Source: a virus. Taken from it: 64,000 bases of DNA. The position numbers and the translations under genes were made by a program. The notes beneath the pieces were generated by a model. That model worked only from the letters and a program-made list of their open reading frames with translations. It was not told the DNA's origin and made no database searches. Position 1 is the stretch's first letter, and every line of letters starts with the position of its first letter. Below, piece by piece: positions 6,553-48,520 of this stretch. The stretch is taken from the IMG/VR virus record IMGVR_UViG_3300008114_000042, positions 34,865-98,864 of that record. One strand, written 5' to 3'.

Positions 6553-9500
6553 TGGATGGAGTTTCTACAACAGAAGAGTATGTATCCCGCGCTATCGATA
6601 ACGGTATGCGCGGCATTGCTATTACTGACCACGGAACACTCTCCGGTCATCGTGCTATGTATCGTGCTGCGACCAGCGCAGGCATCAAGCCGGTACTGGG
6701 AATCGAAGCCTACTTTACCCCTGACAGAAAGGACCGCAGGGACTACGACGAGCGCACCACTCCACTAGACAAGGTGTATAACCATCTTATCATCCTTGCG
6801 AAGAACAACAAGGGTCTTGCTAACCTTAACAAGATGAGCGAGATTTCTTGGAATGATGGCTTCTTTAAGAAGCCTCGTATTGACTTTGAGTTGCTAGAGA
6901 AGTACGGTGATGGACTCATCATTTCCTCTGCATGTATGGGTGGCCTTATCAACCAAGCGATTGAGCAGGACGAACTTGCCGTAGCCAAGGGGCACCTTAA
7001 GTGGTTCGGTGACCGCTTCGGTGACGACTTCTATGTAGAGGTCATGCCACACAACCCTGCTTACATCAACCAGACACTCATCGAACTTGCAGACCACGGC
7101 GGTCACAAGATCATCGTTACTCCTGACTGTCATCACGCGACGGTAGACCAGAAGATCATTCAGGAAGTCATGCTCATCAACAATACTCATCCTAAGCAGG
7201 TTAAGGATACTACCTATGCCAAGGCAGCCAAGATCGACAACCTCATGGATCGCCTTGACTACCTTTACGACAAGGATCGCAAACTAACTTTCAACAAGTT
7301 CGACATTCACTTGCTCTCCGCAGACGAGATGCGTGAGGCCATGGAGAACAGTGGTGGTTTTAGGGAGGATATGTTCTCCAACACAGAGGAAATCCTTGAC
7401 AAGGTAGAGGACTACAAGATGCCTCGTAACCTCAACCTCCTTCCCACAGAGTACCAGAAGCCAGCAGACGAACTTCGCCGTCTGGCCTATGAGGGTCTGG
7501 CAGAGCGTGGGTTCGCAGACAACCCAGAGTATGTCGCACGACTGGATGAGGAACTGTCCATCATCCACGACAAGGGCTTTGAGCCTTACTTTCTCGTGGT
7601 GCGCAACATGCTCAACTGGGCACGCAAGCAGGGCATCATGGTAGGACCGGGTAGAGGATCGGCAGCAGGATCACTACTGTCTTTCTGTCTCTACATCACA
7701 GACATTGATCCTATCCCCCACGGACTACTGTTCTTCCGCTTCATCGATCCTAGCCGTGATGATTTCCCTGACATCGATTCTGACATTCAGGATAGTCGTC
7801 GTGATGAGGTCAAGGCTTATCTGGAAGCACAGTACCGGCATGTGGCATCCATTGCTACCTACCAAGAGTTCAAGGATAAGGGAGTCGTGCGTGACGTTGC
7901 TCGCGTGTTCAACGTCCCTCTGTCCGATGTGAACCGTGCTCTTAAGTCTGTCGATGTGTGGGAGGCATTTGCCTTTAGCCGCAGCACCGCATGGTTCCGA
8001 GAGAAGTACCCTGAGGTGGTCACCGTAGCAGAGCAGTTGCGTGGTCGCATCAGAGGCACAGGCATCCACGCCGCAGGCATGGTCACTGCCAAGTCTCCTA
8101 TCTCCAAGGTGGCTCCTATGGAGACACGAGTGGACCCCGCCAGCAAGGAGCGCATCCCTGTCGTGGCGGTCGATATGGAAGAGGCAGCAGACATTGGCCT
8201 TATCAAGATTGACATTCTTGGTCTTAAGACTCTCTCCGTTATTGACGACACTCTTAAGACTATCAAGGAGCGATGGGGAAAGACCATCGACCTTCACTCC
8301 ATCCCGATGGATGATAAGAAGGTTTACGAAATGATTTCGGCTGGTCACACGAAGGGCATCTTCCAGTGTGAGGCTGCCCCCTACACCAACCTCATTCTCA
8401 AGATGGGCATTCGCAACTTCGATGAACTTGTAGCCTCCAACGCACTCGTGCGCCCCGGTGCTATGAACACCATTGGTAAGTCCTACGTTGCTCGCAAGCA
8501 TGGCAAGCAGGACATCTCCTATGCCTCTCCACTGATGAAGGCATTCACAGAGGAAACGTATGGTACTATTCTCTATCAGGAGCAGGTTATGCTCGCCTGT
8601 ACGGAACTAGGCGGCATGACCATGGAGCAGGCCAATAAGGTTCGTAAGATTATTGGAAAGAAGAAGGACGCTAAGGAGTTTGATGAGTTCAAGGAGTTAT
8701 TCATTCGGAATGCGAGTGGGCCACTTGGCGGGGCGGCTGCTGAAAAGATGTGGCATGATTTCGAAGCCCACGCCGGGTATTCGTTTAACAAGTCTCATGC
8801 TGTCGCTTACTCAACCCTATCGTACTGGACCGCATGGCTCAAGCACTACTACCCGCTAGAGTTCATGTTCTGCGTTCTTAAGAATGAGAAGCAGGCAAAG
8901 GATAGAACACCCTATCTTATTGAAGCAAAGCGCATGGGAATCCCCCTGCGACTACCACACATCAACGAGTCAGACCTTGACTTTAAGATTGAAGGGAAGG
9001 CGATCCGCTTTGGGTTGACTAGCATTAAGTTCCTTAGTGATAAGGTCGGTGGCAGATATATCGATAACCGTCCTTTCCATTCCTACGAACAAGTTAAAGA
9101 GTTTACTCTCACAAAGGGCAACGGAGTAAACACTCGTGCTCTTTCGGCTCTTGATGCAGTAGGCGCTGTGGCGTTCCCTGACAATCCTAGGGATGAGAAC
9201 AGGGTTCGAAGCAACCTCTATGAGTACCTAGAACTGCCAGAGTTTGCAACTGATATCCCATCTCATATCCATGCCTTCATGGACAACTGTGATGACTTCG
9301 ATGAGAAGGGCGTGTTTATCTTCATGGGTGTCGTGCGTGATATCAAGCGGGGTATGGGATGGGCACGGGTAGAAATCCTTGATGCCACCGGCAGCGTAGG
9401 AGTCTTTGATGATCCACAAACAACCATTGAGAAGGGCAAGCAGTACCTCTTTCTCGTTGGGTCTAACCGGGTAGTTGAGGCGATCCCTGTGGATGAGATT

Positions 9501-24232: not shown

Positions 24233-24655
24233 ATGAAAATTTGTGGAACCTGTAAAGAAGAAAAGCCAATTAGCGAGTTCTCCCTCAAAAAGGGAAAGCC
24301 CCAGTACAACTGTAAAGAATGTCATTCAAAGTATAGAAAAGCACACTACGAAAACAATAAGCAAAAATACATAGACAAGGCTGCTAAGAACAAGAAAGCA
24401 TATGCCAGAGAGTATTACGACTGGCTAAGTGGCAAATGTTGCGCTGACTGCGGGACGACAGACATAAGAGTCTTGGAACAGGACCATCTCAAAGATAAAA
24501 AGTTTAATATCTCTTTGCTAATAGGGAGGGTGAGACTCTCTACGATGATGGAAGAATTGAATAAGTGTGAAATCGTGTGCGCCAACTGCCATATCATCCG
24601 TACCGGAGAAAGGGCGGGGTGGCTGAAACAAGAATACTACGCGAATATAGTTTAG
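24233..24655 (+). CDS. HNH endonuclease inside tRNA cluster
   Basis: 'CADCG...DH...CEIVCANCH'; stop lies within tRNA-Gly. Confidence 0.85.
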   Translation: MKICGTCKEEKPISEFSLKKGKPQYNCKECHSKYRKAHYENNKQKYIDKAAKNKKAYAREYYDWLSGKCCADCGTTDIRVLEQDHLKDKKFNISLLIGRVRLSTMMEELNKCEIVCANCHIIRTGERAGWLKQEYYANIV

Positions 24656-24711: not shown

Positions 24712-24840
24712 CGCAAGGTATGGCTCAGTAATGTGAGGTGACGATGTTGATGCCTATGTCGCACATAGAGACATCGAAACAATATCATTATTCATCCCCA
24801 GCCACGCACCTACCAAGGGTTGCCGCCCGAGGGTAGAGAG

Positions 24841-24868
24841 GGGGAGAGGTCGGCAAAGCCTCTCCCCT
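24841..24868 (+). terminator. GC-rich hairpin
   Basis: ggggagagg ... cctctcccc inverted repeat. Confidence 0.5.
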
Positions 24869-25200
24869 TCATAATAATGGTATAATAACTCTATGTGGTG
24901 TGACGTACATCGACAGAAATTTGATTTAGATGAGAATGGATGGCCTACATGCGAGGACAAGGAGAAAGAGAAGGACTAAGAAAGTCCTTGCCCTATCTCT
25001 TGTTCTGGTTGCTGTGTGGGGGATGATACATTACCGTGTCGTCCCAGTTATGTACTACAATATTCTATGTTTCTTTGATACGGAATACAACGCAATGAGG
25101 ACCGATGCAGGACACCAAGAATGTTTGGAGTCCTATCACGAGCGATAAGGGGCGGGACGGATCAGACCTCCTGCCCTTTGTCTATACCTCAATATTCAAG

Positions 25201-25284
25201 GGAAGATTGGCAGAGTGGCTAATGCAGCGGCTTGCTAAGCCGTAGGTCCGTAAGGGTCCGTAGGTTCGAATCCTACATCTTCCT
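25201..25284 (+). tRNA. tRNA-Ser (GCU)
   Basis: ggaagat/atcttcc; ttGCTaa; long variable arm. Confidence 0.92.
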
Positions 25285-25613: not shown

Positions 25614-26177
25614 ATGAAGAAGACTCTATCAGCACTAGGACTAAGTTCAATCGGATTAATCGCTGTTACGGCTACCGCACCAGCCTTCGCTACCCCGTCA
25701 GAGATGGTAACCGTCTGCCACGTTACTCCCGGCAATTCGGTAACGCTGACTATCCCAGAGGATCAGGCCAATGGTCACCTAACAGGCAAGGCAGCAGGAC
25801 ACGACCTGAACGGCCCTGTAGAGGACTATCTTGGTGAGTGCAAGCCTACCCCTACGCCTACACCAACACCTACCCCAACACCTACTCCAACCCCAACGGA
25901 GACATCTACACCAACACCAGAACCAACGCCAGAGGCTACTTCGGTGAACCCGGAGGCGGCTCTACCGCTGGAAGTTCTTCCTGCCACTATTGCTGATCCC
26001 ATCATGGTCAATATACCTCAGAAGGCAACCTTACCAGTAGAGGTTAATGCTGGTGGCGGGGGTAGTCAGGATGAAGGCCCATCACCATTAACACTAGTAG
26101 GACTACTACTAATGTCTGCTGGTGTGGTAACCGCAACATTCTCCGGTATCCAGATGCTTGCTAAGCGTGGAATCTAA
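25614..26177 (+). CDS. secreted/cell-surface protein with Pro-Thr linker and C-terminal anchor
   Basis: Signal peptide, 'VTVCH...GH' domain, (PT)n repeat, C-terminal TM + basic tail. Confidence 0.75.
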   Translation: MKKTLSALGLSSIGLIAVTATAPAFATPSEMVTVCHVTPGNSVTLTIPEDQANGHLTGKAAGHDLNGPVEDYLGECKPTPTPTPTPTPTPTPTPTETSTPTPEPTPEATSVNPEAALPLEVLPATIADPIMVNIPQKATLPVEVNAGGGGSQDEGPSPLTLVGLLLMSAGVVTATFSGIQMLAKRGI

Positions 26178-37055: not shown

Positions 37056-39041
37056 TTTGTTACTTCCTTTCGTGAGGGACAATCCCTCGTTGTTGTTATA
37101 GTCTAAGTATACACGATCCGGCGCAGGTTGTCAAGAGGAAAATTCATTTTTCCTGCGATATTTTTAGTTAGTCCGTAATCCGTTTCGGGCAGGGTGTCCG
37201 GTTTGACCCAGTTTGGGGGAGGATCGAATGTCCGTTTTGCCCGTTTTGGGTGTCCGAACTGTCCGATTCTCCCCTTTTTGCTACTCTAAGTATACCGGAC
37301 TTGGAAACCATTGTCAATGTGAGATAGATCACACGGGGCGCGGGTAGGGTTAGGGTACCCTTACTCCCTATTCAGTGCAGCCTCAGCATAGAAGTCCTCA
37401 TAGCCCATCATAGGCTCATCAAAGGATGCCTTCATCTCGGCATGGTCCTCGTCTGTGAGGTCTTCCCACATTGTCTCGGGGTACTCATAGGGATCACCGT
37501 AGTAGCCGTACTGCTCATCAGTACCCCAGCCACACGACTCCATCACGAAGTCAAAATCGTCATTCATCGAACGTACCAGTCCTCATCAGAAATATTGCTA
37601 CGGGTAATGGGGGCCAGCATCTCAAAGCCCCACAGAGCGGTGGTGCGCTCGCCACACACCGGGCAAGGACCATAGGCAACGTTGGTCCAGTCCTCCCCAC
37701 GCTGGTGGATGCCAGCGAAAGGCATGGCGTTGTGGAGGCCACGACCCTCATAGGCGCACTCTACACAGTCGATAGTGGCGGGGCTGTGAACCGCTTCCTT
37801 GGTCTCATTCATAGTTCTACTATAGCATCGATGGGGGCTGTAGTCAAGTCCTGAGAGTGTGATGTGTAACACACGGGGGCGCGGGGCCTACTCGTCCCCG
37901 AAGCCCCACGAGTCAAGGGAATCCTCATCGAAATGACCCCGCATCATCTGCTCAGTGTACCAGCCTTGAGCGTCGAAGCCGTCTGAAAACTCGAAAATAG
38001 CCATTATTTTCCCTTTCTGTTGACACTACAATACCACATAATTGCTCTGGGAGTCAACTTCTGGTGTTGTGATGTCGGTCACAGGGCGGGTCGCGCCCCG
38101 CAAAAAGTATTTGAGTAGTTTTACATCATACTCAGGATGTTGGTCGAAAGGAAAGAGGGAAAGGTACCTCACATCTTTCGTCCATTCCCCACTATGACCA
38201 GTAGTGAGGAAGTTGAAGGCCACCTTTATCCCCTTGCTTGGGTGGCATATGGTAAGAGTCTTATCTCTATCTCATAGAGTGGGGTCTTACCGTTTTTTAA
38301 TTAGACAGTAACGTTGGCACGGATGCCCCGTGGGAGGGTAGAGAAGATAACGTCGTCATTGACGGTCATCTCCACGATCTTCCGACCGTTGTGCTTGTGG
38401 ATATCTAGAACGGTACCACGGAGGCCCGAACGGGAGGTACGGTAGGTGTCGCCAACCTTGACTGACTTGGGCTTGCTCGGCATATGTATTCCTTAGTGCT
38501 GTAGTGGGTCTTTCTGATGACTCAAGTATACCGGATACCGGCGCTATTGTCAAGTCACGTTTCGGTAACGCTACTCTTCGTAGTCGGGACTATCCAACAC
38601 AATACAGGGAAGCGTATCGGTATCAGATACCTCAATAGACTTAAACTCGGACCACTCATCTAACAGATGAATGATGTACCCGCTGCCGGTGGGAAACATG
38701 GAATTAATGACGTACTCACTGCCACGGATAATTACCCTGTCCCCTACTTCAAGCGAATAGACTTCTATTCTATCAATGACCTTCATGCGCACCCCCCAAA
38801 CAACGGGGTATAGAAATAGATGTGAATGTCTAGGGTTGACTTCCAGAGTGAAATCCAGTCCCCAAACTCATCCCCATCGACATAGCACAGGAAGTCGTTA
38901 TCAGTGTAGACGATCCATTTGTCCTCGTCATCATCATAGGGCATTTCATAGACGTGTGCGTTCATCCGAACCACAGCGCCAAAAAGCCGGTAGCCATGAG
39001 AACGATGTTTTCCAACAGGAAGGGGGGAATTTTAATCTTCA

Positions 39042-39287
39042 TTACTTATCCCTACTAAAACCGTTGTCGGTCTCATCAATAGTATCTTGGGCAAACCCAA
39101 TGAGGCTTGCCTCAAACTTGCGTGCATGATGAGCACAGAATTGCAAGGGAAGACCCTTCTTGTTTGCCACCCGCACCCATGCTCGCTGAATACAACGGTC
39201 GCAACGGTCCATCAAGGAAAGGACAGGGGCAGGAGGGACAGGCTCATAATCGGCGTTGTCGATAAGAGTCTGAACAGGACTTCCCAT
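39042..39287 (-). CDS. small Cys/His actinobacterial-type protein
   Basis: 'DRCDRC..RAWV...LQFCAHH'. Confidence 0.65.
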   Translation of the reverse strand: MGSPVQTLIDNADYEPVPPAPVLSLMDRCDRCIQRAWVRVANKKGLPLQFCAHHARKFEASLIGFAQDTIDETDNGFSRDK

Positions 39288-39864
39288 TAGATTTCTCCTC
39301 TCAGAATAGCAGCCTTGATATAGTTAAGGTCAGAGGTATTGTCATAGGTATACTCAAGGATTTGATTGAGCACGCTTGCCTCATCAGGAGTAACCATGAG
39401 GGTGGCATAGACAAATTCAGTATTCGGCATTACGGTGCTTGGCCTTCCTAGTATACTTGCTCTTATTACGATGGGGCTGGGCAGCATTGGACCGGCGAAG
39501 GTCCTGCCAATACTGCACTTCCTCACGGGTCTTCTTTCTTGTTTTCATCATGGTAATACTTTACCACACTTTTCGTTGGATGGGAAGAGGCAAAACGGAC
39601 ATTGGAGTGTGATGATTGTCACATTGGACCGCGCCCCGCCTCAGATTTTTACCCTACAGCACTCAACGCATCAGCAATATCATACTTGACATTCTTTAAT
39701 CCGATAGTCACAGTCTCTATGCGATCCTCTGCGTTCTCATTCACAAATGCAAGACTCTCAAGACTGTCAATGATCTTGTTGACCTCATTTGCCGCACGGT
39801 AGAGAGCGTGACGCATAGCAAACTGAGTCTCAGTAAGTTCCTTGTTAGACTTCACCGGAAATCA

Positions 39865-40257
39865 CTATTTCCTTTCATCGTTCCAGCGCTGGATGCAACT
39901 CTTGCACCTACGCCTACCATCTACATATTTTGTGTTCTCGTCATTGTATGGGTGCCCCCACTTGCAATGGGTCTTGGCTTGGTTGGCGTGTCGGCCCTTG
40001 GACACCATATCTCCAACGTTGTCAGCAGGAGAGCCTGCTCGCAAGTGCCGTGGATTCACACAGGAACGATTATCACACAGGTGCATAACAACATCGGGCC
40101 ACTCTCCATAAGTCAGGAAATATGAGAGTCTGTGTGCCTTCCAATAGTTGTATTGTCCATACCCGCCGGGATTGACATACCCTGACCACTCCCAACATTC
40201 ATCGGGAGCCCCCATGACTACCCTCGCCCAGAACCGGGCAGGAGCCTTAGAATACAT
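39865..40257 (-). CDS. HNH endonuclease (HNH_3-like)
   Basis: 'CWEWSG...GYG...AHRLSY...H.CDN..CVNP.HL...N..D'. Confidence 0.88.
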
Positions 40258-41039
40258 CTGAAACATCCAGAATCTCAAAGTCCTCAGGAGAAAACTCCTC
40301 ACGACTACGAATGTAGTCTAGGGCAGCATCCCTATTGGGGAAGGACCGCTGAAAGACGTTCAGGTAGTAAACTCTATACTGACTCATTGTTCTCACTTTC
40401 ATAGTTCATCTTAGAAGGCTTACGACAGTAGGAGCACACCCACTGTCCACTATTGGGGTCAAGTGTCCATCCATCCTTGGCACTATGACCCTTCGTACTA
40501 CCCTCACACCACGCTGTCATCGGCTTTGCAGCCTTGTAGTGATAGTATCAATGAGAGCGGAACAGCGCTGCTCAATTTCTTTGAGGTACTCCACCGCCTC
40601 CTCATCTTCACTGCACGTTCCCATGAGGTCCACAGCATTTTCCATACGGTCGTTCAGGGTGTCTGCAATGAAGTGCCAGACATCCTCCCGAAACTGAATA
40701 CTCACGGGCAAGGCGGGGGACCTTCCAATAATCTCGTAGTCATCAAATGTGGTGCCGTCGCCAGCCAACTCAACACGGCTGTTAATCTTCTCAACAGCAT
40801 CCTCCCATGAGCGGGTAGAGAATACAGGGCGACCTAGGAAGTGAACCTCATAACTCATGCGAGTGTCCCCACAAACTCTACGTCAACCAACTTGGTTGCA
40901 ATGGAAGGATGCACACCCTTGATAACGTCAGCCACGTCATGCAGGTCGTTCTCTTGGATAATGGTTCGATCCTGATTGTTAAATCGGTAAGTGATAACCC
41001 AGACGTTCATTGTGTAACCTTTCGTTGTTTCTTGGTTTT

Positions 41040-43755
41040 ATTCTAGCAGGGGGGTCTGACATTGGAGGCTTGGAAATGCTATCAAATCGGACAGGTTGTA
41101 TAACGAGATGGTAACAGAGTTATCCACAGATTTCCCAAGTTATCCACAGGTGAAAAGTTGTTTAGTACCAACAACTTTCGGCCCTCACCATGGACTACGC
41201 CCATAGCCAATAACCGTTATATCCCAACGCTTTTGGACTGCCCCATTCTCAGCCATGAATGCATCAATGAGTTCATCAGGCACATAGCCATAGACAGAAG
41301 TGCCACCAATGCTACCGTCGTGGTAGTCAGCGAACGGCTCAATGGGATCGCATACCCATTTGCCATTGAGGAAGAAAGCAATCTCACTAGAGATACCCTT
41401 GCGGCACATATGGTATTCGCTGTTCTGCACACTGATCTCATCAGCCTGCGGGTGAACGATAGTGTAAGTAGGCATTTATGCTCCAATCGCATTGTGAATG
41501 ACAGCGCCATTCTCTACGGAAATGGTCAGGGTATTGACGTAGGTATCGCCATTCCAAATCTCAATGTCGATAGTCTGGTCAGTATCGAATGACCACACCT
41601 TAGCGGTGATGGTATCGACTACTGCCTCTGCGAAATCATGCTTGGTAATCATTGTGTTTCCTTTCTACCAGCGTCCGAATGACTTGACAGGCTCACGATC
41701 CCCAAGAGCGGAGCGGAGTTCGATAGAGCCGCAATCCCGCATGGAGACTGGCGTACCGTCAATCTCAACCCAGAAACGACCCTGACGGTGCTTAGGCATC
41801 CAAGTGACGATGCCCTCCATTCCACCAGAAGTGAAAACGTGGTCGCCAACCATGAGGTCGGTAGTGCAAATGCGGATCATTTTCTTACCTTTCTTGTTTC
41901 TTTCTATACCCTCATCCTAGCAGAGGGGTCTGACATTTAGTTCGGGGGAATCGGGTGATATCGGACACCCAATCAGAACCGTTACCTAACCGTTACTTTC
42001 GGTTGAGGTAGCCCTTGTGAGGGCAATCACGACGGTCATGGCGACTGTCGCAACCAGAGCAGAGAATCTGAGTCATTGTCTTTCCTTTCTTTCTATGCCA
42101 TCAGTCTAGCAGGGGGGTCTGACATTCTTGGCCTCAGAATGTGTGCAAAACGGACACACGCAGAAAAAAGTTTATGTGATGAATCTCACAGGACGGGCCG
42201 CGCCCCGACCCTCAGGAGTTGTTTAATCCCAACACTTATTCTCCCCAGAAGTCGTCAAGCAGTACCCGGCAGTCGTTGCACAGGTGTCGTTCGGTGCGAG
42301 TGTTGGCAACAATTCCAAGCGCAACAGTCTCTACCTGCATCCAGCCAACAGCATCGCAACTGTTGGGACTCACTGTTGTCTCGCACACGTTGCAAGTGAT
42401 CCAGTCTATACGCTCATGCCACCTCACAAAATATCCTCTTCCTCTTCGCACTCACCTTCAATAGTCAGGTCGGGGTACTCATAGCCTTCACCGAGGTAGT
42501 AGCAGTAGTAGTCGAATGCTGATTCGCAGAATGCGGTCTCAACCAAAACCCCATCACGCTTGCTAACGATGCTATGCATGACTAGAACGGTGCCTTCCAG
42601 TATTCCTTGCCGTCTACGACAACGTAGTCAGCGTCCTCAATGGGCATGAGTGGCTTAGTCTTGGTCGGCTCATCAATGAGAGTAGTGAAGTGCTTGACGT
42701 TGGCGGTAGGGACATAGATGATGTCCATATCCTTATTGTCTACCTCCCAAGAGATGTAGGCAGCCTTGACGATCAGGCTATCCTCCACAACGTGAGCATA
42801 GACGCCTGCGGTACCGTCCTGAAAGAAAATCTGAATACGCATTGTGTGAATCCTTACTTGTGAGAAGAGCAGTGAGCGTGCCCATGCGAGCACTCGAAAT
42901 AACCGAAGTCGATATCCTCATCCTCAAGCATGAGGGAGGCATAGACGTTTTCCTCTTCCTGACGGGCGAGGACGTATGAACATTCATTGTCCATATACTC
43001 CCATGAAGAGCCACAGCAGCAGCCGCCCTCATTGAAGTCAAAGTGATGAGAAATGTTAGACATTAGCGTCCATCCAATCCCACACGTCAGCGATGACGTG
43101 CGTGTTGCGAGTGAGTGAAGAGCAAGTACCCATGTAGGTTGCAGAGAAGCGGCGGGACTCCTCAACGTGATCGGCGTAAACCTCAACGTCATACTCCCCA
43201 TCAGAGTACGGGCCGAACACAAAAAGCGTGAACGGCAGCCGACCGAGAGCGGTGTCGTGATAGATATGGAAGGTTGGGAGGGTCATTGTATAGCCTTTCG
43301 TTTGTTTCTTAGTTTCATTGTAGCAGGGGGGTCTGACATTCAGACAGGCGAATGTCCGTTATGTCGCATTTCGCCTAGTGTGACAAGAATCACAATGGGG
43401 GTCTGACAGTCGGAACTTGTACGACCCATGGCGGGGACGGACAATGAAAGTAAAGGTAGTGCCATACATGGTGAATGACTCCACACGGTACTGAGTATGC
43501 TCACGCCCATGGCGGCTAGATGCCTTGAGGACACGGTAGTTCTTACGCATTACCGTCCATCCCCCACATCTGCTCCCAATAGTCCTCATCCTCGAAGTCA
43601 TCCCAAGCCTCACGGCTCTGAATGATGAGTTCGCACTCAGGCAGATCGAAGATATCAATGTCTGTGGTGATGCGACCACAGGCGCTCTTGACTGTGACGA
43701 AGGTTGACATTCCTTGTCCTTTCTCTTGATCGAAGTCTAGCAGAGGGGTCTGACA
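41040..43755 (-). promoter_or_regulatory. five TGTCAG-N10-TAnnnT promoters (PafBC/RecA-NDp-like)
   Basis: 41040-41061, 41914-41935, 42103-42124, 43317-43338, 43734-43755; degenerate copy ~43387-43408. Confidence 0.8.
41120..41148 (+). promoter_or_regulatory. two perfect DnaA boxes
   Basis: TTATCCACA at 41120 and 41140. Confidence 0.7.
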
Positions 43756-43756
43756 G

Positions 43757-44155
43757 TCACCGTGACCGATGGGCACGATTGCGTTCATTCTTGCATAGGC
43801 GACAGGTCTTGTCCCCACGCTTGTTGTGATACCAGTTCTCAGGCATCCATTCATGGCCCCGCACACAATGGGTCTTGTTCTGCCATGCAGCACGGCCACG
43901 GGTGATCATGTCGGCGGTATTGCTCAGATTGGACCCCTCCTGCAAGTGACTAGGGCGAACGCATCCACGATTGTCGCAGGTATGACGAACAAGGGTAGGC
44001 ATCTCCCCATAGTAGAGAGCATAGACAAGCCTATGCGCTCTATAGGTTTCGCCATTCATCTTGATCCTTCCATATCCTGAAACAAACTTAGATCCAGTCC
44101 ACTCCCAGCAATCGCCAGAGGTGTCTACCTTGTCCAGAATGGTGCTAATGTCCAT
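43757..44155 (-). CDS. HNH endonuclease (HNH_3-like)
   Basis: 'CWEWTG...GYG...AHRLVY...HTCDNRGCVRPSHL'; leaderless after TGGTATAAT. Confidence 0.88.
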   Translation of the reverse strand: MDISTILDKVDTSGDCWEWTGSKFVSGYGRIKMNGETYRAHRLVYALYYGEMPTLVRHTCDNRGCVRPSHLQEGSNLSNTADMITRGRAAWQNKTHCVRGHEWMPENWYHNKRGDKTCRLCKNERNRAHRSR

Positions 44156-44403
44156 AGTGACCATTATACCATCCTTTAGACAAGTTCGGGCACAAGCGAA
44201 AGAAGACTGCCCTCCTCGCCCAATGTTTCTACGTTTGCAACCCTGCCATAGAAACACACATGGTCAGTAGGGTCACCAGCGGTAACCACACGAACAGACT
44301 TACCAGAGGTAAGATGGACCAAGTAAACGAACATTGTCTAACCTTTCTTTCTACCCTTAGGGTACCACAGGTAGGTGCCAGCCCCTATTGAAGATTTGAT
44401 GAG

Positions 44404-44475
44404 CGGAACCAACGGGGATCGAACCCGTGTTACCACCGTGACAGGGTGGCGTGTTAACCTCTACACTATGATTCC
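44404..44475 (-). tRNA. tRNA-Asp (GUC)
   Basis: ccacc-ctGTCac-ggtgg. Confidence 0.92.
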
Positions 44476-44476
44476 T

Positions 44477-44551
44477 TGGCTGGCATGGGAGGATTCGAAC
44501 CTCCAACCTTTCGATTAACAGTCGAACGCACTGCCGTTGTGCTACATGCCA
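44477..44551 (-). tRNA. tRNA-Asn (GUU)
   Basis: ttcga-ctGTTaa-tcgaa; encoded CCA. Confidence 0.92.
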
Positions 44552-44556
44552 CAGAG

Positions 44557-44628
44557 TTGGGGTACATGGATTCGAACCATGAATGACAACGTATCAGATT
44601 GTAGTGATGACCTTTTCACTATACCCCA
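44557..44628 (-). tRNA. tRNA with GAU (Ile) anticodon on a Gln-like body
   Basis: tggggta/tacccca acceptor; acaat-ctGATac-gttgt; A73. Confidence 0.7.
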
Positions 44629-44633
44629 TGGAG

Positions 44634-44705
44634 AGCCTAGAGAAGGAATCGAACCCTCAACCAACGCATTACAAGTGCGCCGTTCTACCATTGAACTACC
44701 TAGGC
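44634..44705 (-). tRNA. tRNA-Thr (UGU)
   Basis: gcgca-ctTGTaa-tgcgt. Confidence 0.92.
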
Positions 44706-44710
44706 AAGAG

Positions 44711-44781
44711 TGGAGATACAGGGATTTGAACCCCGAACGATTGCTTGCAAAGCAACTGTGATACCTTTTCACCATATCCCC
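44711..44781 (-). tRNA. tRNA-Ala (UGC)
   Basis: ttTGCaa loop; G3:U70. Confidence 0.92.
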
Positions 44782-44798
44782 GTCGTCTGGGCCGCTAG

Positions 44799-44869
44799 TG
44801 GGGGCACAGGGAATCGAACCCCGATCTGCTGATTAAGAGTCAGCGGTTTTACCGTTAGACTATACCCCC
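44799..44869 (-). tRNA. tRNA-Lys (CUU)
   Basis: gctga-ctCTTaa-tcagc. Confidence 0.92.
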
Positions 44870-44874
44870 GAAGT

Positions 44875-45305
44875 GTGTGTGGTAGGAATATTCTCAGGCT
44901 TCCCTACCTTCCCGGTGACTGGCCTATCCCTTGCGGGTGCTACTGAGAGCCGGGGGTTCAAGGGGATTACTATAGGCATTGGTGGCGAGAACCTCATTTA
45001 ACATTGAACGTGTCACTATTTGTACCTACTACCCTTGTGTTTTGGGGTTTCGGGGACTAGGCTAACCCGGTCTAACCGGAGCGTTCGTTCCACCCTTCTG
45101 AGTACCATTGCCACTACGGCTTTCCTCAGTTTTCCCAAGTTTGTGAGCGGATTCTTACCGCTTTCAGATTTCGGTCTGTGCGTGCCTAGCGTTTCTAGTT
45201 TCGACTGGCGCATCCTGTGCTTTCCAATTCCCAACTAGTGCTTCGGGGCTTTCAGACTCCCAATCTGCGCTTCCTAGCGCTTCTGGATACTCTCTATTTT
45301 CTTAT
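44875..45305 (-). ncRNA. candidate large structured ncRNA upstream of tRNA cluster
   Basis: Own promoter, no credible ORF, many hairpins and GAAA/GCAA loops. Confidence 0.6.
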
Positions 45306-46497
45306 GTCTTAAGAGTACCACACTTTGGTCTGGTTTGCAAGTCCTGAGGCTTATTTGCTGTGTGAGGCTCATCACATTTTCTGTGCTTACTTGCTCACGC
45401 AGGCTCATCCTTGACCTTGCTCACTCTCTATTTTCTTATACCTTAAGGTTACCACGGATGGGGGCAGAAAGCAAGTTGAAAATGCATACAAAACGGACAA
45501 CTTTATGTGATGTGTGTCACAACGGGTCGCGGCCCCCGTTAATATTCCTGACTATACACCTGCTCAGCAATATCCTTGTATTCAGCCTTCATTAGATACC
45601 CCTGCTCAATAAGCATATCCAGAGCGCTCAGTACCATTTCCCATGATCCACGAGGCATCTCTACTCTAACCACAATATCTTCCTTCTCCATACCCTTGCG
45701 GAATCAGCGTAACGAAACCATCGTTGGCATCGTCATTAGTAAAAACAGCGTTGATAAAGCGTAGGCCGCATGACTCGTCATACCAGTCTACGATATCCTT
45801 GAGGTTGGGAGCATATGTCTCATAGTCCCATTCCTCCATTTGCCTAACCTGCTCATCATCCATAGACAGGTAGATTTTATGACAACCGTCAAAATGCATA
45901 CCCTTCGCATTACGGAGCATTTGCTCTACCAGCCACCAGCGGTCATCCATTGTATTCCTCCATTGCCTGAGTGTATGAGAAGTCTATTACCTCATACTCT
46001 CTAATAGCCCCATCATTGCTATTGTATGTCTGAATGAATAGTGGGCGGCAGTCAAGGCATCCCGCTACTCCACACCCGCCGATTAGTGTGCGTTCGATAG
46101 TCATTAGTAGTACCGTCCTTCATTCATCATTTCATCGGTAGGGTAGTGGTAAATAGGATGGGCGCAAAGCCATGCAGACATGCCATGCTCGCAGATATCC
46201 TCCTCAGGATCGGGAGGATATTCCATATTATCCATTTGATATGCCCCCAATAGTCCACGGTAGTCATTATCTACAGACTCACAAGGGAATTCGTCAGTAA
46301 TCATTAGAATACACTCCCACACACGAGACAGATAGCCTTATACCTAGGTTCGATATCCTCGCAGCCGATACACGGCTCCCACGGTAGGTCGGGGAAATAC
46401 TTATAGACAAATTCTTCGACAGCCCTCTGGCCCTTATCTTGATAGATAGCGTAGCAAACGTCATCCAGACCGATAGTGTCATCCATGATTATTTTCC

Positions 46498-47244
46498 TTA
46501 TTTCTTTGATCGTGAGAATGAGATATTGGCCTTATTATCAACGCATAGACGGCAGACACTACAGGCGCTACCCTCGGTGCTAATAAGGGGAATTTGCTTA
46601 CGCTGCTCAGGACAGATAGCACCGGGCCTGCCGGTAATATCCTTGACAGCCGCCTGACTTTCTGCAAAAGTCTCAGCAACGAAAGCGACCTTAATTCCAT
46701 AAGTACGGTAGAGCATATCTGCTACCGGCTTATTATTGGGGTCGCCACTAAAGTAAAGCGACAGATTAGGCAGATTAGCCTTGTGCAGCCTGACGGCAGC
46801 ATTAGCATTACGGGTATAGACCCAGAATTGGATATGCGGGTACAGGATGATAATGTTAATCCATGCCTCAATATAGGTTTCAGAGAAAAAGTCCCCGTCC
46901 CAATGGATGCGATAAATACGCTCAGAGCCCTTTTTCTCAGACTTAGTATCGAATTCCCAGATAAGGGCGTTCAGCATATCGAAAGTGTCGATAAGGTTGG
47001 CATCCTTAAGGGCATTGTAATTGTGGAGCATGGCAGCCCCGACACCCTTAAAAAGGTTTTCCAATTTGCCAGCGTAGCAAATTAGTTCGCAATATTCGGT
47101 AGCACCGACGCAGGAATAGTCAATTCCATTGGCAAGGCCCATAGTATTTGAGAAAGCGGCCTGCTTTCCATTTTTAGTAACGCAGGAAGCCACTTTCCGG
47201 TCATTAGAAGCGGCTAGGACGGGGAGCATTGTTTTCGTAGTCAT
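46498..47244 (-). CDS. Gp88-like Cys-rich protein
   Basis: 'SCVGAT..C...CYA', 'RIHWDGDF', 'WVYTR', 'CP...C..C..C'; leaderless ATG 47244. Confidence 0.75.
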   Translation of the reverse strand: MTTKTMLPVLAASNDRKVASCVTKNGKQAAFSNTMGLANGIDYSCVGATEYCELICYAGKLENLFKGVGAAMLHNYNALKDANLIDTFDMLNALIWEFDTKSEKKGSERIYRIHWDGDFFSETYIEAWINIIILYPHIQFWVYTRNANAAVRLHKANLPNLSLYFSGDPNNKPVADMLYRTYGIKVAFVAETFAESQAAVKDITGRPGAICPEQRKQIPLISTEGSACSVCRLCVDNKANISFSRSKK

Positions 47245-47856
47245 AGGTGTAACTATACAGGATAATATGGGTATGGTCAAGGGGCAAAACGGACATTGGC
47301 GTGTGAGTAATATCACAGGGGGCGCGGCCCCGGCAGGGTAGTCAGGAGGGTAGTGTAGCAAGGTAGCAGGTAACAAGGTCATAGGGTACAAGGGTGTAGA
47401 ACACAGAGTGTCCATGGTCCCTTACCACTACAGCCTCATGGTCAGCGAAGAAGGGCACAAGGGTAGCGCTAGCACGGTCATGCTTAAAGAACACAACGGT
47501 ACAGTTGCGAGGGTAGTTGTATACCTGAAACGACGTATGCTCATCCCCCTCTGGGAGGTAGTGCTGTACCCTACCTACCCTAGTAGTCATATCCACCACA
47601 GCACCACATGCAGCCTTCCTTGTGGTCATCCTCATCCTGTACCTTCTCTTCTTCAATGTCAAGGTAGTCCATGATTCCATCAGTAATGGAGTAGTACCTA
47701 TCCTTGCGATGACGGATTTCGTTAGTCCATTCTCCATCACCCTTGTACCGTCGCCATGCTACGTCGGTATGCCAGTTAATGTGTGCCTCACCATGCTTGT
47801 CCTTGACGTATGCTATCTGCACACGGGCAGGGCGAGTCTTATCAGTCTTGCTCATA

Positions 47857-48321
47857 CTAGTCCTCCCATGAGGGTACTACGGTAGTGGGGATACCATGCT
47901 CTGCCCAGAGGGCCAGCACAGCAGGGTTGTCATCAATGGCATGGATCACATCGTACTCCTGCTGTATGCGGTGGAGTATGTCACTCTTGACATCGTAGTC
48001 AGGGCGACCGTCCTTGTCCCCTCGCATGAGCATGAGGTCTGACGGTACACCATGAAGGGCGAGCCACCATGCTGTTGCATGACGGTACATAGCACGCCTA
48101 GCAGTAACGATGATGATGGTAGTACCTAGCATGTGTGCCCTATGCACCTGATCCACCACATGGGCATGAGCAGGCACGTTGACGCTCTCACTATGAAAGG
48201 CATGGAAGTCCTTGTGCCACCCCTTAGGCTTGGGGGTAGGGGGAAGGATGTAGTGCCTGATACCACTCACATCGGCAAGGGTACCGTCCATATCAACGAT
48301 CATAGCCTGTCTCTTACTCAT
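47857..48321 (-). CDS. HAD-family phosphatase (PNKP 3'-phosphatase-like)
   Basis: 'IVDMDGTLA', 'VTAR', 'MR...D.R.D..VK', 'IDD'. Confidence 0.88.
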   Translation of the reverse strand: MSKRQAMIVDMDGTLADVSGIRHYILPPTPKPKGWHKDFHAFHSESVNVPAHAHVVDQVHRAHMLGTTIIIVTARRAMYRHATAWWLALHGVPSDLMLMRGDKDGRPDYDVKSDILHRIQQEYDVIHAIDDNPAVLALWAEHGIPTTVVPSWED

Positions 48322-48520
48322 AGTCTAAGACTACAGCATGGAGAGGGATAAGTCAAGTTGTGATGGTGTGATGATTGTCACAGACAATATAGGCGCACTA
48401 AACGCTGACGCATAAAGGACAAATAGGACGTATCGTACAAATAGTCTCAAAATTAAAGTTTGTCGATATTAATAAACAAAATAGTGAGAAGTAATAAAAA
48501 TAGTGTGATATAATGGGTAT

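Follow-up and report, generated by a model that had tools for sequence, protein, structure and literature searches.

We cautiously propose that the region ahead of a six-tRNA cluster in this phage is a non-coding transcription unit whose functional part would be a structured RNA of ~170 nt (44971-45139, minus strand), fused here to the tRNAs. This core is probably a genuine small phage RNA, known from two genomes and apparently new. Judged from the sequence comparison, the core appears to be under structural and sequence constraint while its flanks are free to vary, a pattern that would fit best with a self-contained non-coding RNA gene. Positions refer to the window, that is, the whole 64-kb stretch of DNA analysed, which forms the right-hand part of an IMG/VR phage record (G000) that is complete at 98.9 kb and carries direct terminal repeats.

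Conservation of a candidate core RNA in a related phage

We used the neighbouring GP88-family gene (46498-47415) as bait and retrieved 80 IMG/VR loci, only one of which showed DNA similarity to the region. This locus lies on a 76-kb IMG/VR contig (G001), and its GP88 protein is 74% identical to that of G000. Comparison of the two phages divides the unit into the following features, given in the direction of transcription:

45506..45521, minus strand: CRP-type box TGTGACACACATCACA upstream of promoter copy A, a perfect TGTGA-N6-TCACA palindrome
45446..45474, minus strand: promoter copy A (TTGCTT, 17-nt spacer, TAACCT, TG before the –10), with the same layout as copy B
45423..45439, minus strand: leader copy 1, 17 nt, AUAAGAAAAUAGAGAGU, beginning 6 nt past the –10; putative transcript start
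45361..45376, minus strand: CRP-type box TGTGATGAGCCTCACA upstream of promoter copy B, a perfect TGTGA-N6-TCACA palindrome
45312..45340, minus strand: promoter copy B (TTGCAA 45340-45335, 17-nt spacer, TACTCT 45317-45312), read from the sequence
45289..45305, minus strand: leader copy 2, 17 nt, predicted RNA 5΄ end; counterpart in G001 AUAAGAACAUAGAG
45140..45288, minus strand: 5΄ variable part with short hairpins and A-rich linkers, without a counterpart in G001
44971..45139, minus strand: conserved core RNA, ~170 nt, supported by the comparison with G001, the covariance model R1 and the consensus fold
44870..44970, minus strand: 3΄ variable part, ending at the 5΄ end of tRNA-Lys and unalignable with G001
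44403-44869, minus strand: six tRNA genes (Lys-CTT, Ala-TGC, Thr-TGT, Ile-GAT, Asn-GTT and Asp-GTC), found by ARAGORN and by the Rfam tRNA model (59-73 bits)

Similarity between the two phages in this region is limited to the transcript start (first ~14 nt, AUAAGAAnAUAGAG) and the core. G001 lacks the ~150 nt that separate leader and core in G000, and the ~100 nt between core and tRNA-Lys have no counterpart there, so that 60% of the 430-nt length is without a counterpart in the sole relative found. The core itself is conserved well above the genome background: its identity to G001 is 84% overall, 91% when the P2 loop is left out and 86% over a 130-nt BLAST HSP, and it holds a 62-nt stretch with one change. 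In the whole-genome blastn comparison of G000 and G001, coding HSPs were 65-76% identical and the six tRNAs were 69-82% identical to tRNAs of G001; identities above 80% were reached only by tRNAs, by one protein domain (25704-25844) and by the core.

The block containing GP88 and a 50-aa gene is inverted between G000 and G001, and the RNA unit lies at the breakpoint. The inversion spans 45539-47415 of the window versus G001:C1:19372-26133. In G000, one strand carries the RNA and the tRNAs together with GP88 and the 50-aa gene, whereas the RNA of G001 points away from the tRNA array, from GP88 and from the homologue of the 50-aa gene.

The second conserved non-tRNA block, at 25704-25844, was set aside as a candidate RNA, being protein-coding. 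It belongs to a gene (25614-26177, plus strand) for a 187-aa protein that combines a signal peptide with a Pro/Thr-rich linker and a hydrophobic anchor at the C-terminus; at 84% identity to G001, the DNA encoding its N-terminal domain is the only block above 80% that is neither tRNA nor the RNA described here.

Predicted fold and covariation of the core

The two core sequences were folded jointly with RNAalifold, which gave 7 helices with 35 pairs. Helices P1-P4 of the RNA are predicted to make up a three-way junction, after which P5-P7 would form a long irregular hairpin:

45134-45136/45045-45047, minus strand: P1, domain 1 (three-way junction)
45125-45129/45098-45102, minus strand: P2, domain 1
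45090-45095/45052-45056, minus strand: P3, domain 1
45075-45082/45065-45071, minus strand: P4, domain 1, hairpin GCUCCGGU-UAG-ACCGGGU
45023-45029/44972-44978, minus strand: P5, domain 2 (long irregular hairpin)
45013-45016/44985-44988, minus strand: P6, domain 2
45005-45008/44993-44996, minus strand: P7, domain 2

All 10 substitutions within helices keep pairing: four pairs are changed on both sides (8 substitutions), two are changed on one side and none of the 35 is broken. Of the compensatory pairs, two are neighbours in P3 (GG/CC to UA/UA); the other two, the closing pair of P4 and one in P5, each changed from U-A to C-G. When the 3΄ partners were slid, no compensatory pair was obtained, and four were reached in 0.7% of 300 conservation-preserving column shuffles. 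The pair-shuffle control was able to reach only 29/500, and the covariation rests on four pairs in two sequences; the consensus MFE (z = –1.1) is not significant. The covariation is thus suggestive, and supports the structure of the core without amounting to proof. The earlier note had listed covariation among homologs as one check; the pair changes in the core point to it (four compensatory, two one-sided and no broken pairs; n = 2), and the flanks have no counterpart in G001.

The internal loops of domain 2 (6 × 6 and 4 × 4) are invariant between the two phages. In domain 1, the P2 stem is kept and its loop is swapped for an unrelated sequence of another length, which in G001 includes the P4 module again. 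This hairpin module (ACGCUCCGG-loop-CCGGGUUAGC) is thereby found two times in the G001 RNA, in P4 itself and within the P2 loop (L091:8508-8541 and 8471-8488), and may be a repeated protein-binding unit. For the long-range pairing GUUCAA/UUGAAC proposed in the earlier note, G001 offers a possible compensatory match (GUUCGA/CGAAC); this pairing is in competition with P7 and would create a pseudoknot spanning P5-P6.

Folding of the opposite strand is almost as favourable (–31.0 versus –32.9 kcal/mol), and that strand likewise shows four compensatory pairs, so that the strand assignment rests on the promoter, the orientation of the tRNAs and the G-U pairs, which make up 12 of the 70 paired cells on the transcribed strand. 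This near-equality of the strands would be compatible with the conserved element being a site acting in DNA, for replication, recombination or protein binding, and such a site would also agree with the position of the core at the breakpoint of the block inversion and with the density of operator-like motifs in the surrounding arm. However, the 12 G-U cells would become mismatches in a duplex or in hairpins of the opposite strand, the promoter and the transcript start ahead of the core are conserved, and compensatory changes across 40-90 nt (P3 and P5) are unexpected of a duplex binding site. We therefore regard a DNA-level role as very unlikely.

A different explanation is that the sequence is a plain pre-tRNA leader or spacer without a function of its own, in which case the conserved block would be a recently exchanged patch and its pairings due to chance. 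The exchange might have occurred, for example, through gene conversion driven by homing-type HNH endonucleases beside tRNA clusters. Homing endonucleases of phage tRNA regions are known to spread flanking DNA (PMC2330249), and an HNH gene (43757-44164) lies just past the tRNAs. The unit sits at a rearrangement breakpoint, its folding energy is at shuffle level, and its 5΄ and 3΄ parts are unconserved and contain recent-looking duplications, all of which agree with a mere spacer. However, recent transfer predicts uniform identity, and the block instead has its 8 two-sided substitutions arranged as four compensatory pairs, with a replaced loop and indels beside the nearly invariant 62-nt stretch. 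Moreover, the geometry from promoter to leader is conserved as well, and the unit is kept in G001 without adjacent tRNAs. A functionless spacer is consequently possible but, in our judgment, unlikely.

Folding energy and comparison with known RNA families

The earlier note described the whole 430 nt as highly structured. Every one of the short pairings that it listed was found in the sequence, as was the recurrence of GAAA on the transcribed strand, where we counted 10 occurrences against none on the other strand. Windows of the genome average 1.4-2.0, and this count ranks in the top 0.25% or better; GAAAGC occurs four times across the whole leader. The energy of the 443-nt RNA gives a different picture, since its MFE of –120.1 kcal/mol equals that of dinucleotide-shuffled sequences (–119.1 ± 6.7 kcal/mol; z = –0.15), and the core alone gave z values of –0.54 and +0.41. 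With only ~170 nt conserved, the description does not hold for the full length.

A search of Rfam 15 with the window, with 1.4 kb and with the 451 nt at 44870-45320 returned no family match at gathering thresholds or at E values up to 10, apart from tRNAs and noise. RNase P RNA, tmRNA, 6S RNA, group I intron, T-box and CRISPR-DR models were unmatched over 44870-45320 at E values up to 10, ARAGORN found no tmRNA within the window, and the RNA unit of G001 matched neither GOLLD, ROOL nor any other Rfam family at E values up to 10. The cmscan comparison proposed in the earlier note (GOLLD, ROOL, RNase P, group I) thus places the sequence outside known families, so far as covariance models can tell. 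Likenesses seen by eye, namely tRNA-like, T-box-like and CRISPR-repeat-like readings of GCCACCA, of GGGUGGAAC and of a hairpin followed by GAAAGC, were rejected, as no model matched them.

GOLLD (RF01998) and ROOL (RF03087) are often found in phages and prophages near tRNA genes (PMC5737381), and the likeness of the present RNA to them consists only of its non-coding nature, its occurrence in phages and, in G000, its tRNA neighbourhood. They measure ~580-800 nt and have many multistem junctions and pseudoknots, whereas the core described here has ~170 nt, one three-way junction and one hairpin. The earlier note read the entire 430 nt as one large ornate RNA, which might be a new class comparable to these two. 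The stretch does adjoin tRNAs in a phage, is non-coding and contains many short hairpins; however, it has no Rfam match at E values up to 10, its MFE is that of shuffled sequence (z = –0.15), 60% of its length lacks a counterpart and its adjacency to tRNAs is not conserved, which makes a single large RNA extremely unlikely. What stands of the proposed new class is that the RNA is non-coding, outside Rfam and in part supported by covariation; its size and its kinship with GOLLD and ROOL do not, the conserved part being ~170 nt. In this respect the first reading is corrected: the RNA is not GOLLD- or ROOL-sized.

The hairpins GCGCU-AGGA-AGCGC, CAGA-UUGGGAG-UCUG and GCA-CAGGA-UGC, with GGA in their loops, resemble those of CsrB and RsmZ. 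These hairpins lie, however, in the non-conserved 5΄ part, and GGA is not enriched: 11 copies were counted in 443 nt, a number equalled or exceeded in 12-27% of genome windows. A faint cmscan match to CsrC (10.3 bits, E = 2.5) is far below its gathering score of 61 bits. The idea of a CsrA sponge was dropped, as GGA lies within the genome background.

Coding potential

In agreement with the earlier note, which saw no credible gene in the 430 nt, none was found at 44870-45538. The longest ORFs on either strand have 72 aa and TTG starts, those with ATG starts have 44-45 aa, and the ORFs belong to no PHROG family and are not conserved in G001. The core differs from G001 by indels of 7 nt and 10 nt that break every reading frame, and hence no ORF is common to the two phages; the conserved ORF that would have spoken for a protein instead is absent.

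The nearly invariant stretch might nevertheless be the start of a small protein, beginning at GTG 45016 or ATG 45004 (MTRSMLNEVLATNA...). The start of this ORF coincides in the two phages (30 aa in G000 and 44 aa in G001), and the single substitution in it is synonymous (TCA to TCG). One synonymous change is, however, no evidence for coding; the products are unrelated past residue 14 and of unequal length, the upstream sequence offers no more than a weak AGG where the leadered genes of this phage use GAAAGG, and there is no family hit. A small protein is accordingly a highly improbable explanation.

An ORF of 44 aa lies between the promoter copies (45274-45408, minus strand) and overlaps copy B. 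It has a plausible AAGG ribosome-binding site and an internal 25-nt repeat (MSLREQVS / MSLTQQIS), and it matches no family.

Promoters and putative transcript start

The TTGCAA-17-TACTCT promoter (45340-45312) is present exactly as described in the earlier note, and the CRP box assigned to it (45361-45376) is a perfect TGTGA-N6-TCACA palindrome, one of nine perfect boxes in the window. Copy B has a TG two bases upstream of its –10. The whole promoter is duplicated, since a second box, a second promoter and the 17-mer AUAAGAAAAUAGAGAGU are found 134 nt upstream; promoter copies A and B form a 33-nt repeat with 88% identity, and the leader copy at 45423..45439 is identical to that at 45289-45305. 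Because the 17-mer begins 6 nt after the –10 in both G000 copies, it is likely to mark the start of the transcript. The geometry is conserved in the relative, where AUAAGAACAUAGAG also begins 6 nt past the –10 (TAGAGT), and the leader motif (with up to two mismatches) stands behind a promoter at only three places, the two G000 copies and G001. Transcription would thus most likely start at the A of AUAAGAAAAUAGAGAG, 6 nt past the –10 of either tandem promoter, each of which carries a CRP-type box.

A simple generic sigma-70 scan does not call copy B. The layout of a box, a –35 and TGTGGTAnnnT recurs at other boxed promoters of G000, and we take this recurrence as better promoter evidence than the scan. 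The nine perfect palindromes fall within ~11 kb of the minus-strand arm (37318-48382), and most of them are followed by a –35 hexamer and an extended –10 of the TGTGGTAnnnT type.

Linkage to the tRNA cluster

The earlier note claimed a 430-nt RNA co-transcribed ahead of six tRNAs. The six tRNAs are present on the minus strand, and a promoter/terminator scan called no terminator-like or promoter-like site from core to tRNA-Lys, nor from promoter to tRNA-Lys; since nothing was called over this distance, co-transcription of the RNA with the six tRNAs in G000 is plausible, and to this extent we infer it. The two variable parts of the leader differ in content: the 5΄ part holds a degenerate direct repeat of ~40 nt, with copies 88 nt apart (45284-45248 and 45196-45160), and the 3΄ part contains hairpins read from the sequence (CCCGG...CCGGG, CCC-GCAA-GGG and GGUAGG...CCUACC).

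The tRNA linkage is not conserved between the phages. The unit of G000 adjoins the six tRNAs; that of G001 is not beside tRNAs, its 18-tRNA array being on the opposite strand ~2.2 kb away. The G001 unit is served by a promoter of its own and begins, as in G000, with AUAAGAAnAUAGAG 6 nt past the –10; its core follows 25 nt from the putative start, a distance that differs by 140 nt between the phages. The G001 core is succeeded on its 3΄ side by ~330 nt of non-coding DNA of unrelated sequence, beyond which lies a leaderless gene with a separate promoter.

This arrangement bears on the possibility that the core is a cis-acting element working on its own transcript or on the polymerase transcribing it, for example a put-like processive antiterminator that takes the polymerase past the GC-rich hairpins at the module borders, or a platform for processing of the tRNA precursor by RNase E or RNase P. 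The put RNAs of HK022 are cis-acting antiterminators of ~70 nt that lie just downstream of early phage promoters, consist of two stem-loops and act on downstream terminators. Like them, the core would be a structured RNA close to the promoter of an early phage transcript, with conserved loops on its stem-loops: it comes soon after an early promoter (at 25 nt from the putative start in G001), short hairpins alternate with A-rich single strands, the module borders carry GC-rich hairpins without U-tracts, and in G000 it precedes RNAs that require processing. Unlike the put RNAs, however, the G001 unit has no dependent downstream gene, as the 330 nt that follow are unrelated and non-coding and the next gene, leaderless and with its own promoter, gains nothing from read-through. 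In addition, the start-to-core distance varies by the 140 nt noted above, and no similarity to the put RNAs or to the antiterminator RNAs in Rfam was detected. Because the next gene is leaderless and has its own promoter, the G001 unit could hardly be an mRNA leader, which argues against a purely cis role; we give such a role a small chance of being correct.

Under the reading that we favour, the core as a self-contained RNA, the nearest functional analogues would be RNA C and RNA D of T4, which are transcribed from the tRNA region of T4 and still have no known role (PMC3014915). The leader of G000 has a layout of this type: it is non-coding and runs directly into the six-tRNA cluster on the same strand, and neither a promoter nor a terminator was called in between. 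Both cases would concern a small phage non-coding RNA transcribed with a tRNA cluster, and release by tRNA-processing enzymes would be expected here; the likeness is one of functional kind and not of sequence or model homology, since no T4 RNA C/D family was matched in Rfam. What sets the present RNA apart is its position 5΄ of the tRNAs, a boxed promoter of its own and the lack of tRNA linkage in G001. To our knowledge, RNA C and RNA D have gone unexplained for decades.

Search for further members

We built the covariance model R1 from the G000 and G001 core pair, and it finds a single copy in each of these genomes (231 and 228 bits). Over the full records of 79 other GP88-bearing IMG/VR contigs, including seven complete genomes, R1 found no match. 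Because these more distant contigs lack the element, the core would appear to be dispensable for this phage group.

Sequence searches gave a similar result. A 'distant' blastn search of 50 697 GenBank phages returned only tRNA hits or chance 29-mers, pattern scans of IMG/VR gave either nothing or G001 and chance coding hits, and scans of the JGI metagenomes and of the GTDB genomes gave only two chance hits each. A search for related loci with the neighbouring 76-aa protein found nothing. Closer relatives of GP88 (61-78% identity) exist in Logan, ENA and JGI assemblies. As for targets in trans, no site of at least 11 nt complementary to the core was common to both genomes.

Proposed maturation and role

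The RNA gene would have become the 5΄ leader of a six-tRNA precursor in G000, and it would stand alone in G001. Release of a leader by RNase P follows from established tRNA processing. Because the RNA unit is fused to tRNAs in G000, RNase P would be expected to release it by cutting at the 5΄ end of tRNA-Lys (44869/44870), yielding a leader of ~435 nt, or of ~570 nt from the upstream promoter. The core might then persist as a stable small RNA acting in trans, binding a protein or another RNA through its invariant loops. Transcription, release by RNase P, stability and action in trans are all steps that we infer from sequence.

A more speculative extension, to which we assign a low probability, is that the core is the founder of a family of phage regulatory RNAs, expressed from early promoters under cAMP-receptor-type control, whose invariant loops capture a host protein or RNA. 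A decoy for tRNA-directed or RNA-guided host defence is one possibility within this idea, and the P4 module occurs twice in G001. If it is true, the tRNA linkage in G000 would serve to mature the RNA and to make it stable.

Apart from tRNAs, few non-coding RNAs are encoded by phages, and for most of these no role is known. The core would add a tractable example, compact and strongly conserved, with its own regulated promoter, from an uncultured tRNA-rich lineage of ~99-kb phages. It is short enough for synthesis and probing, its two natural versions are ready-made compensatory mutants, and its fusion to tRNAs in one phage and not in the other constitutes a natural experiment on RNA maturation.

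Other features of the two genomes

Several promoters have an ATG 6-7 nt past the –10 (window ~48340, ~47265 and ~39570; L091:8047), which implies leaderless mRNAs. Such a leaderless habit is typical of actinobacterial-type hosts, and these promoters hint at a host of that type. ORFs for HNH-type endonucleases lie inside the first tRNA cluster (24233-24655, plus strand) and just past the second (43757-44164, minus strand), a placement that recalls the homing endonucleases in the tRNA region of T4. The 489-nt gap between tRNA-Gly and tRNA-Ser (24712-25201, plus strand) contains weak ORFs of at most 72 aa, has no DNA similarity to G001 and may be another non-coding spacer in a tRNA precursor. G001 carries a tmRNA gene (L091:4120-4422) with the tag ANTQTAFALAA, and 26 tRNAs within 16 kb.
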